A stretch of 64,000 nucleotides of DNA. Origin: Bacteriovoracaceae bacterium. Its GTDB lineage: Bacteria > Bdellovibrionota > Bacteriovoracia > Bacteriovoracales > Bacteriovoracaceae. The stretch spans positions 1 through 64,000 of the forward strand of contig JABIHA010000068.1 in NCBI GenBank assembly GCA_018649885.1, written 5' to 3'. The translations under genes were made by a program, and so were the position numbers. Below the pieces are notes generated by a model that was given only the letters and a program-made list of their open reading frames with translations, searched no databases and was not told where the DNA came from. Shown here in pieces: positions 40,237 to 64,000 of the stretch; positions within the stretch are counted from its first letter, which is position 1, and the number at the start of each line of letters is the position of its first letter.

Positions 40237-40446
40237 TTCTGGTTTCAGGAATCAGGTTTCTGGCTTCGGAGATCGGGTTTCTGGGTTCAGGGGTCTAAAT
40301 AAAGTATGTGCCTAGTTCGTAGCTTTCGCCTGCGATTAAGAAAATAAAAAAATTCTGGCTTCGGGGATCGGGTTTCTGGCTTCAGAGATCTGAATAGAGT
40401 ATGTGCCTAGTTCGTAGCTTTCGTTACGATTAAGTAAACAAAAAAA
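40237..40446. repeat. 7-bp-period repeats and two imperfect copies of a ~95-bp unit upstream of the four-helix-bundle gene
   Basis: TTCTGGT TTCAGGA ATCAGGT TTCTGGC TTCGGAG ATCGGGT...; copies start at 40258 and 40353 and share GTATGTGCCTAGTTCGTAGCTTTCG exactly. Confidence 0.88.
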
Positions 40447-40538
40447 TGAAATATTTTTTTATTGACTGAATCTTCACTGCAGCTGGTTGGGGGGAAGAAT
40501 TGCCTTCAGGCAATTCTTGGTTAACTAAAGGAGATTGT

Positions 40539-42902: not shown

Positions 42903-42979
42903 GGGACTATAGCTCAGTTGGTTAGAGCCCCCGGCTCATAACCGGGTGGTCCAGTGTTCAAGTCACTGTAGTCCCACCA
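42903..42979 (+). tRNA. tRNA with anticodon CAT, most likely tRNA-Ile2 (lysidine); elongator Met not excluded
   Basis: 77-nt cloverleaf: GGGACTA/TAGTCCC acceptor stem, CCCGG-CTCATAA-CCGGG anticodon arm, CAGTG-TTCAAGT-CACTG T arm, encoded CCA. Paired 1:72 rules out initiator. Confidence 0.93.
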
Positions 42980-57573: not shown

Positions 57574-57691
57574 ATTGGGAATTGGTCTAATTACCTGATA
57601 TTACAACAAGCAAGTTGAAATCTAGCCATTAAAATTATTCTCACTTTCTTGCCATATTCCTTCTCTTTATATAATTAACATCACAGGTATT

Positions 57692-57991
57692 GAGCAGTTG
57701 AGACTATCGTCGGTCACCCTATTTACTAGGATGACGGGAGGAAAGTCCGGACTCCACAAGGCAGCCTAGCGGGTAACGCCCGTCCACCGTAAGGTGAGGA
57801 CAAGTGCAACAGAAAGTATGTACAGGTTATGCTGTAGTGAAACCAGGTAAACTCTAGGCGGAGCAAGCTCAAATAGGCCAGCGATTAAGGGGAGCCTCTC
57901 CAAGTTGGCGGGTTGAGTGCATGAGGTTAAAGGCAACTTTAATCCTAGATAAATGATAGTCCTCGACAGGATCCGGCTTACACGACTGCTC
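57692..57991 (+). ncRNA. rnpB: RNase P RNA
   Basis: GAGGAAAGTCCGG, GTGCAACAGAAA, GGTAAACTC, AGATAAATG and ACAGGATCCGGCTTA universal motifs; P1 pairing GAGCAGTTG/CGACTGCTC extends to 57685/57998; TATAAT at 57670. Confidence 0.96.
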
Positions 57992-58105
57992 AATACCTTT
58001 TTTCCAAAAAAATCCTGAATTTATTCCAAGGAACACTGTTTCATTCTCATGAAATTCAAAATCTCTGATAGGTTTAGAAAAATAATTGAACTGGGGGGTT
58101 CTTCT

Positions 58106-62543: not shown

Positions 62544-63146
62544 TTAGAATTCCACACCCTTTTGCCTAAAATATCTAAATAGTGAATTACCAACATCAAC
62601 AACTAAATCCTTTCCTTCTACATCCAGTTCAAGAAAATCACTTAGGTAAGCCTTTTGCCTTGGAGTAAGTCTTTCCAGCTTATCCCTTAGAGTAGTTGGA
62701 TTATTTCTAGCTCCATCATCGGCCCTAAAGGGAATGCTTCTGGTCTTCCCACCAATTTTCACCTTGGCGGTTGTAGTTCGTTCAGCAGTTCCAAGCGAAG
62801 AGAAGACATCATTAAACTCATCTTCCTCCTCTTCATTATCGGAAGATGGAGGTGGTTCCATAGGACCATCTTTATAGAACTGAATGAGTCTTTTAAATTG
62901 CTCGGTGGAATCCTCTTCGATGAAATCAATAATCTCGTGCAACGGAATATTTAACCTTGCAACAATCTTTGCAATGAATTGCTCGTCGAGTTCCCTGGTT
63001 TTCCTGTTCAAAAAGCGCGACATGGTGGAAATTCCCACCCCAACCAAATTGGCCAAGTCCTTTTGTGAAAGGGCTCCTCGTACTTGCATATACTTACGAA
63101 TTACACCTAGAAAATCGTCTAAATAATCTCTATTGAAGCGAACCAT
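62544..63146 (-). CDS. XRE-family helix-turn-helix transcriptional regulator
   Basis: LSQKDLA.LVGVG.STMSRF HTH; GGAGG RBS. Confidence 0.85.
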   Translation of the reverse strand: MVRFNRDYLDDFLGVIRKYMQVRGALSQKDLANLVGVGISTMSRFLNRKTRELDEQFIAKIVARLNIPLHEIIDFIEEDSTEQFKRLIQFYKDGPMEPPPSSDNEEEEDEFNDVFSSLGTAERTTTAKVKIGGKTRSIPFRADDGARNNPTTLRDKLERLTPRQKAYLSDFLELDVEGKDLVVDVGNSLFRYFRQKGVEF

Positions 63147-63164: not shown

Positions 63165-63191
63165 TTGTCGGAACGAAATTATATTTCTTGA
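63165..63191 (-). promoter_or_regulatory. sigma28 (FliA)-like promoter for the XRE gene
   Basis: Minus strand TCAA-N15-TCCGACAA versus consensus TAAA-N15-GCCGATAA. Confidence 0.55.
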
Positions 63192-63205: not shown

Positions 63206-63234
63206 TTGACGCAATGGGTCAGACTTGCTATTCT
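63206..63234 (+). promoter_or_regulatory. sigma70-like promoter for the pentapeptide gene
   Basis: TTGACG-N17-TATTCT with an extended -10 TG. Confidence 0.65.
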
Positions 63235-63267: not shown

Positions 63268-63696
63268 GTGAAAAGTACAACACTCAAGCACTTCTCAACT
63301 CAACCCCTAGTAAAGCCACACGAGGTCTACATGACCGTTCAATGTGAAGCTCTAAGTGATTGTATTCTTAAGGGAAAGATTATTTCCGGTTCCCTCCTCT
63401 CTCGCACAACTTTTTCGCGGGTGACTTTCGAAGGCTGCGTGTTCTTCGCCTCTGAAATAGAAGGATGTGAATTTGCAGGATGCAACTTTGTAAATTGTGA
63501 AATCCAATTTACTAACATCCAAGGATCTACTTTTGAAGCATGCAATTTTGAAAATTGCGATTGGGAATTATCAGAAGTTAAAAATTGCAATTTCTCAAGT
63601 ACTGGAATGGATTCCACTACTACTATTACCCTAGGAAAGGGAACAAACAGCATGGAAGCCTGCTTTATCGGCAACGGAATTGCTCAAGCAGCATAA
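63268..63696 (+). CDS. pentapeptide repeat protein
   Basis: xxFxx 5-residue periodicity (TTFSR VTFEG CVFFA...); AGGAGG RBS before GTG 63268. Confidence 0.85.
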   Translation: MKSTTLKHFSTQPLVKPHEVYMTVQCEALSDCILKGKIISGSLLSRTTFSRVTFEGCVFFASEIEGCEFAGCNFVNCEIQFTNIQGSTFEACNFENCDWELSEVKNCNFSSTGMDSTTTITLGKGTNSMEACFIGNGIAQAA

Positions 63697-63697
63697 T

Positions 63698-63931
63698 CAA
63701 CCAAGATGGTTGCGGGCTGGAAGCCCAGGGCAAGAAGCCCTTTGGTCATGGAGACCAGCAAGGATGAAGAGAATTGAGCAGGAAGCTCACCCAAGGATGA
63801 ACAAAATTGAGCAAGAAGCTCACCAAGGATGAACAAAATTAAGCAAGAAGCTCACCAAGGATGAAGAGAATTGAGCAGGAAGCTCAGCCAAGGATGAAGA
63901 AAATTGAGCAGGAGGCTCACCCGCATGCGGG
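63698..63931 (+). ncRNA. candidate CsrB/RsmZ-like multi-hairpin GGA sRNA
   Basis: Nine short hairpins with 5-nt purine-rich loops plus five CAAGGATG motifs; 10 GGA in total. Confidence 0.55.
63759..63921 (+). repeat. five tandem 32-33-bp repeats
   Basis: CAAGGATGAA(G/C)A(G/A)AATTGAGCA(G/A)GAAGCTCAC units start at 63759, 63792, 63824, 63856 and 63889. Confidence 0.93.
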
Positions 63932-64000
63932 CACTAAATAATGAAAAAGATTAAAAATATACCCGGAACAAGGACACCGCAAACTACTCAACCTACCTCA

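Follow-up and report, generated by a model that had tools for sequence, protein, structure and literature searches.

Behind a pentapeptide-repeat protein gene of a Bacteriovoracaceae bacterium, a marine predator, lies a 454-nt tail, counted from stop codon to terminator, which is a tandem expansion of a folded RNA conserved in the family and probably acts as a decoy that titrates CsrA. The stretch of DNA analysed here, the window, comprises 64,000 nt, the first part of the 109368-base contig C83; a first-pass annotation of its letters had proposed a CsrB/RsmZ-like protein-sponge RNA at the very end. The array of hairpins described there extends beyond the window end to the terminator, and the strongest evidence is a conserved core that also lies past that end and makes the element family-wide. 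The element is real, family-wide and apparently undescribed; no description of it was found in the open-access literature. Coordinates are collected in Table 1.

Table 1. Features of the locus; positions beyond 64000 continue the window numbering on contig C83.
Feature	Position	Strand	Remarks
XRE-family HTH regulator gene, 200 aa, divergent	62544..63146	-	Pfam HTH_26
Sigma28 (FliA)-like promoter before XRE gene, predicted	63165..63191	-	pattern T[ACT]AA-N15-[GT]CCGA
Sigma70-like promoter TTGACG-17-TATTCT	63206..63234	+	sequence pattern
TGAC-N7-GTCA palindrome over -35 box, candidate operator	63207-63221	+	sequence pattern
Shine-Dalgarno AGGAGG in 3-bp hairpin, UAGGA loop	63252..63262	+	from sequence; possible CsrA site (putative binding)
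Pentapeptide-repeat protein gene, 142 aa from GTG (presumed start)	63268..63696	+	Pfam Pentapeptide_4; ends Ala-Ala
Hairpin 1	63698-63712	+	loop AAGAU; starts 2 nt after pentapeptide stop (63696)
Hairpin 2	63714-63726	+	loop UGGAA; GGA unpaired probability 0.99-1.0
Hairpin 3	63728-63740	+	loop AAGAA
Hairpin 4	63743-63757	+	loop AUGGA; GGA unpaired probability 0.99-1.0
Five 32/33-nt units	63759..63920	+	each a CAAGGAUG linker plus hairpin
Core start	63963..64000	+	cut by window end; continues on contig C83
Stem S1	63963-63977 with 64005-64016	+	swap tests
Stem S2	63991-63999 with 64034-64042	+	swap tests
Linker AAGGA	64000-64004	+	between S2 5' arm and S1 3' arm
P2 hairpin	64056-64083	+	loop AAGGAU
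Terminator-like hairpin with T tail	64124-64150	+	sequence prediction

The four short hairpins claimed for the start of the array were all found in place (63698-63757), as were the five 32-33-bp units, whose CAAGGATG starts fall at 63759, 63792, 63824, 63856 and 63889 (spacings 33, 32, 32 and 33); TRF reports a period of 32, 5.0 copies and 90% matches. The description as a chain of 5-nt loops holds for the presence of the hairpins, with the amendment that in the ViennaRNA fold the loops of hairpins 1 and 2 have 3 nt, and the TGAGC-GCTCA-type hairpin ascribed to every unit is present in four, the stem of unit 3 being broken (TAAGC). From unit 1 to unit 5 the loops read AGGAA, AAGAA, AAGAA (on the broken stem), AGGAA and AGGAG; GGA in these loops is unpaired with a probability of 0.89-1.0, and GGA in the linkers with one of 0.20-0.95 that varies with the folding span. 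The earlier counts of 10 GGA up to 63931 and 12 up to 63975 are right, and the GGA at 63965 and 63972 sit in the 5' strand of a conserved stem. Over the whole tail there are 17 GGA on the plus strand versus 2 on the minus strand, with 12 A(N)GGA, 11 CA(R)GGA and six GGA inside predicted hairpin loops. The 32/33 period had been taken to argue against coding, and stop codons in all six frames bear this out; a 39-aa ORF at contig positions 63941-64060 was considered and found no support, relatives conserving the pairing and not the reading frame. Two traits of the sponge class are therefore present, namely many A(N)GGA in loops or single strands and a non-coding sequence (stops in six frames) with an intrinsic terminator site.

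AAGA occupies four of the nine upstream loops, and there is the one broken stem, which together fit relaxed selection. Between the two explanations first offered for these loops, decayed sites or a second specificity, decay is favoured: no such 5-nt loop occurs in 102 relatives versus three here, a weak test because 5-nt loops, whatever their sequence, are scarce in the relatives.

The plain number of GGA lies within the range of dinucleotide shuffles, 78 of 1000 reaching 17. The number of CA(R)GGA lies beyond all 1000 (11 versus a mean of 1.9 and a maximum of 8), and when a single unit stands for the whole repeat the count is 5 versus a mean of 0.97, a value reached by 0 of 1000 shuffles. The folding energy of the whole RNA is unremarkable (z -1.27 and -1.67), and a genome-wide scan of GGA density did not single out the locus (10 A(N)GGA per 250 nt), simple repeats being equal or higher. 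An assembly artefact was excluded by metagenome contig L247, identical to the locus over 63094-64214 (though perhaps not independent of the assembly), and by a contig of seawater metatranscriptome X1 that covers 63759-63885 without a difference. Among JGI metagenomes the expansion matched one contig, identical to the locus.

We find it scarcely credible that the array is a repeat acting at the level of DNA or termination, whether REP-like, a set of minus-strand terminators or a type III antitoxin array. Five minus-strand terminator-like matches do lie inside it, and the succession of repeat, terminator and ORF resembles the layout of type III toxin-antitoxin loci. Yet the repeat hairpin pattern occurs four times in the 5.4-Mb genome, all inside the array, so the unit is not the dispersed REP-like repeat that the first-pass annotation had considered might undo its proposal, nor does it have the many genome copies of the REP/BIME type; viral contigs gave 0 matches to the repeat. 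There is no convergent gene, and directly behind the terminator, where a type III toxin gene was looked for, comes a 978-aa plus-strand ORF that Pfam does not match and for which PADLOC gives only a weak, partial hit (LeoBC, E 3e-5). The genes downstream of the tail also differ among relatives, a convergent nadB-like motif appearing in 20 of 103. The reading as a DNA-level or terminator repeat is thus largely refuted.

Other features of the neighbourhood may be recorded here. Two large plus-strand ORFs, of 978 and 889 aa and both without Pfam match, follow the terminator (L033:4327-9925, equal to G000 C83:64326-69924). Elsewhere in the window, 40258-40447 and 40237-40291 hold a 95-nt unit, present twice, and the 21-nt repeats in front of it, and positions 1-284 carry nested 15/33-nt repeats, apparently a Pro-Lys-rich coding repeat, with a similar one at the start of contig C20.

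For the survey of relatives we examined 116 loci drawn from the better-scoring matches to the divergent XRE gene; these were found with an alignment-based query, a single-protein scan of contigs having given none. After removal of duplicates and of eight loci that lacked a pentapeptide gene, a stop or 200 nt of downstream sequence, the set comprised 103 genomes from 45 genera, this genome included. In the first 130 nt after the stop codon, the 102 relatives have 202 ANGGA in sense versus 36 in antisense. A stem with 6 or more pairs and ANGGA directly next to its 5' arm is found in 45 of the 102 (reverse strand 5; shuffles mean 2.8, maximum 7), a GGA-loop hairpin in 61 (reverse strand 6; shuffles mean 11.5), and S2 and then the GGA hairpin, in that order, in 29 (reverse strand 0; shuffles mean 0.12). 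A second A(N)GGA follows the junction site in 50 of 55, and the median spacing of the two core sites, 66.5 nt, is just above the 10-63 nt range given for CsrA bridging (PMC7652899).

The core consists of two crossing, covarying stems with ANGGA between them; a hairpin with ANGGA in its loop comes next, and a terminator usually follows. Its order, S1-5', S2-5', ANGGA, S1-3', S2-3', corresponds to an H-type pseudoknot in which ANGGA forms the linker, and we predict that S1 and S2 coexist in such a fold rather than alternate. S1, which usually has 5 pairs, a 3-nt bulge and 6 pairs, joins sequence upstream of the S2 5' arm to the bases directly after ANGGA. Plain MAFFT misaligns the S2 3' arm, and swap tests and a covariance model were used for this reason. 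For S2, with an anchor of sequence only, at least 6 Watson-Crick pairs form in 41 of 55 cognate combinations versus 110 of 2800 swapped between genera (22 of 29 versus 5.4% with one per genus). For S1, 10 of the 11 pairs are reached in 16 of 53 cognate versus 14 of 2586 swapped combinations (with one per genus, 9 pairs in 11 of 27 versus 32 of 702), and the mean duplex energy is -9.6 versus -5.4 kcal/mol when swapped. Two-sided changes occur at all 11 S1 pairs in 16 sequences, of 20 passing the score and aligned by sequence alone, a selection that favours this outcome. The covariation across relatives that the first pass had suggested looking for is therefore there, S1 and S2 both covarying in the swap tests.

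The covariance model, built from 15 hand-picked relatives, has its best match in this genome at 63988-64108 (24.3 bits, E 0.034). At E<=0.05 it recovers 41 of 150 family genomes and misses many true loci; over 43 model matches 87.5% of positions counted as pairs are paired, the alignment being fitted and the seeds included. Strong matches lie behind the pentapeptide gene at loci already sampled, and of ten weaker or second matches checked, two lie behind that gene and eight overlap unrelated coding DNA. The stems vary while the loops keep ANGGA, and the core loops hold extra conserved bases; the junction ANGGA differs from the canonical hairpin-loop CsrA site.

Such a core might serve something other than CsrA, as a nuclease block, an aptamer or the site of another protein, with ANGGA structural and the array a product of neutral slippage; to this we assign a low probability. 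The conserved shape with its 3-nt bulge in S1, the two-sided changes at all 11 pairs (16 selected sequences) and the extra conserved loop bases would suit it, and AAGA decay in an array confined to a single lineage fits neutrality. What a CsrA-independent core leaves unexplained is the second ANGGA, in the loop of an ordinary hairpin whose stem varies freely, and slippage does not account for CAGGA(A/U)G-like loops in several unrelated stems, which match the CsrB repeat CAGGA(U/A/C)G (PMC7652899). That stems vary, that ANGGA is fixed at two places and that the expansion multiplies CAGGA(A/U)G-like sites is most simply accounted for by selection for CsrA binding.

GGA per tail has a median of 3 and a maximum of 7 in those 65 relatives whose terminator-like site comes within 250 nt, and the median tail length is 162 nt, taken over the 69 in which it comes within 500 nt, versus 444 nt here. 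These lower counts and shorter tails indicate that the core was retained in this genome and that ten GGA were gained upstream of it, between stop codon and core. The expansion by tandem duplication proposed at first pass is borne out by the comparison with the 102 relatives: the array is upstream growth of the family-wide core by duplication of hairpins and of the 32/33-nt unit. It was found in no other genome examined. A(N)GGA is absent from the first 130 nt after the stop in genera g2, g32 and g72; we considered whether loss of GGA tracks loss of csrA and rejected this, since G001 and G031, genomes from among these genera, keep csrA.

The slot behind the pentapeptide gene holds other things in some relatives. 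Behind the gene comes a hydrophobic ORF of 23-29 aa, equipped with a ribosome-binding site, in loci of g37 (L021, L087, L101, L104, L106-L109, L114, L130), g65 (L083, L096), g7 (L019, L122, L131, L133, L153) and g10 (L004, L079, L097); the filter for it is passed by 23 of 103 loci, about 3 probably by chance. In g37 and g65 this ORF replaces the RNA core, beginning no more than ~30 nt after the stop, and because it occupies the slot some GGA there are ribosome-binding sites and the counts are inflated. L012 (G033), L094 and L110 (g80) have C/U-rich motifs (runs like CTCTCTCCCC) in the first 230 nt after the pentapeptide stop, resembling anti-Shine-Dalgarno seeds; L012 carries four repeats of the motif, some of them in hairpin loops, and the 3' slot shows there another type of expansion.

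The tail could also be a base-pairing small RNA whose C/U-rich stretch before the terminator pairs with Shine-Dalgarno regions, the GGA module being accessory. CCTACC occurs in 9 of 44 genera versus 0 on the other strand, and lineages without GGA keep C/U-rich stretches, in L012 repeated within loops; against this, the stretch is weak in the present genome, where CCTACCTC is the paired S2 arm, and Hfq was not found in this 92%-complete assembly. We hold this account to be very improbable.

Upstream, 195 of 237 genomes of the family have a match to the divergent XRE gene; a phylum sample of 165 genomes from other families has none. The sigma28-like pattern facing it is present on the minus strand at 62 of 93 loci and on the plus strand at 0; on the side of the pentapeptide gene, the -35 context of the sigma70-like promoter is found in 68 of 75 loci and the palindrome in 49 of 75. 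The pentapeptide protein ends in Ala-Ala in 63 of 103 orthologues versus 42 of the 4122 ORFs of this genome (1.0%). This end is a candidate ssrA-like degron for ClpXP, and the protein is likely unstable.

Evidence of transcription comes from assembled contigs, which carry no strand, ends or level, from runs chosen by matching this locus. In X1 a 521-nt contig covers 63268-63788 at 100% identity, from the coding sequence into the array, in addition to the second contig described above; X2 and X3, from other studies, gave 151-nt pieces of the coding sequence. Runs X4-X7 are probably DNA and were left out. That the tail is 3'UTR-borne, as first suggested, holds up: gene and tail stand on one RNA-library contig, itself unstranded. 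The remaining array and flank (63886-64150), with the core, and the XRE gene are uncovered, an absence that is uninformative for assembled contigs. In the surrounding 19.9 kb, among the matches listed, there is one other exact piece, of 182 nt and low depth, and cross-matches of the RNA libraries cluster on the RNase P gene (class A RNA, 57691-57996, plus strand, 229 bits; a tRNA-Met lies at 42903-42979, plus strand).

A role confined to the host message, in which CsrA binds the tail only to control the mRNA in cis (stability or 3' end formation) without meaningful titration, appears unlikely to us. The element does appear bound to the pentapeptide gene, the strong and two weaker model matches lying behind it; most relatives have only 2-3 sites; and no conserved internal promoter was established, one weak sigma70-like match lying at 63668-63697. 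Twelve A(N)GGA, however, far exceed what control in cis needs, and since the transcript is detectable in three metatranscriptome studies, binding at twelve sites would titrate CsrA anyway.

The protein partner is present. Both csrA and fliW, whose presence the first-pass annotation had wanted confirmed, were found, behind flgL; csrA scores above the NCBIfam cut-off, its best PDB match is the 83-aa chain 5dmb_D, and it is matched in 35 of 36 family relatives. CsrA keeps L4 and R44, its RNA-binding residues (PMC7652899), so that the cognate RNA-binding protein expected of the sponge class is available, and N55 and the C-terminal extension, the FliW contact (PMC13407953). The genome also has genes for FliA, an RNase E/G family protein and RNase Y, and an RNase J-like gene below its cut-off. 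Five flagellin-like genes were noted (G000 C57:76529-77366, C57:75334-76168, C73:36397-38386, C35:4801-5635); within 160 nt upstream all 5 have GGA sites, of which one lies in a hairpin with an AAGGA loop (read by eye), and they are likely CsrA targets.

In the decoy role that we favour, the sigma70-type promoter would make a single transcript of gene plus tail; the pentapeptide protein would be short-lived, and the tail would bind CsrA dimers, about one in relatives and several here, freeing targets such as flagellin leaders beside control by FliW. The pseudoknot and the stop-proximal hairpins may block 5'-to-3' decay, in which case the tail is predicted to persist as an RNA of its own. FliA-driven XRE protein could switch the transcript through the palindrome on the -35 box, and this switching would tie CsrA titration to the predatory cycle. 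That all of this holds together, as a CsrA sponge of the family's own with a decay-shielding pseudoknot and junction ANGGA, working beside FliW, switched by FliA and XRE and just grown to the size of CsrB in this genome, is a tentative proposal, on balance doubtful; if true, it shows how CsrB-like RNAs arise by convergence. Several observations weigh against the decoy role itself: the four AAGA loops and the broken stem, an array confined to one lineage, three genera that have no A(N)GGA although at least two of them keep csrA, GGA counts inflated by ribosome-binding sites in g37 and g65, a junction site outside a canonical loop, core sites spaced slightly too far apart for the bridging range, and a plain GGA count and folding energy inside the range of shuffles.

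CsrB ends in an intrinsic terminator, as the tail is predicted to do. Among structured small RNAs it is the best match of the element in Rfam, below cut-off, and at cut-off Rfam has no match for the element; the CsrB/RsmZ-like membership first proposed is not sustained, RF00018 scoring 19.5 and 13.1 bits against a gathering cut-off of 71, and the loci of eight relatives give no Csr-clan match at E<=1. CsrB has its own promoter, activated by BarA-UvrY (GacS-GacA); here the BarA-type sensor domain PF09984 was not found in the 92%-complete genome (an E. coli control was positive), and the GacA-box consensus had no match near the locus at up to 3 mismatches. CsrB is a stand-alone gene, whereas the element is a tail on a coding transcript. 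What CsrB/RsmB (RF00018, clan CL00106) shares with it is the repeated CAGGA(U/A/C)G in loops and single strands and a similar size (PMC7652899), a likeness that is most likely convergent because recent duplication of 32/33 nt gave rise to the repeats here.

Control of CsrA by RNA decoys and control by a protein antagonist, FliW for example, have been called mutually exclusive (PMC7366521), a review leaves open whether both types act in one species (PMC7652899), and for the FliW-bearing bacteria named in a 2026 paper its available text still gives no sRNA of this kind (PMC13407953). The element, in a lineage whose CsrA had been taken to be controlled by protein alone, makes this question of decoy plus FliW testable in a family with cultured members. 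It also introduces a structural class in which GGA sits at a predicted pseudoknot junction, and site numbers running naturally from two up to twelve. A part for CsrA in Bdellovibrio predation has been reported (PMC13443453). The attack-phase sRNAs of Bdellovibrio bacteriovorus (PMC3627812) are likewise non-coding RNAs of a predator, and the FliA consensus given there resembles the promoter of the XRE gene; the available text of that paper never mentions CsrA, and the XRE gene was found only in Bacteriovoracaceae among the genomes searched. In Campylobacter jejuni the flaA mRNA is likewise a coding transcript that titrates CsrA beside FliW (PMC4894983), but there the chief target of CsrA, the flagellin mRNA, is its own decoy, whereas here a dedicated structured 3' tail is carried by a non-flagellar gene. 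RsmW of Pseudomonas aeruginosa (PMC4950607) likewise lies in the 3'UTR of a small gene, is co-transcribed with it and has several loop GGA; the RsmW type starts within 30 nt of a stop codon, and the present tail starts 2 nt after it, on a shared though unstranded contig. RsmW is ~120 nt long with 7 GGA and gammaproteobacterial, and its processing and binding are experimentally supported (PMC4950607), whereas the element described here, known from sequence and unstranded contigs, is a 454-nt tail on a predicted pseudoknot core in a FliW-bearing genome.
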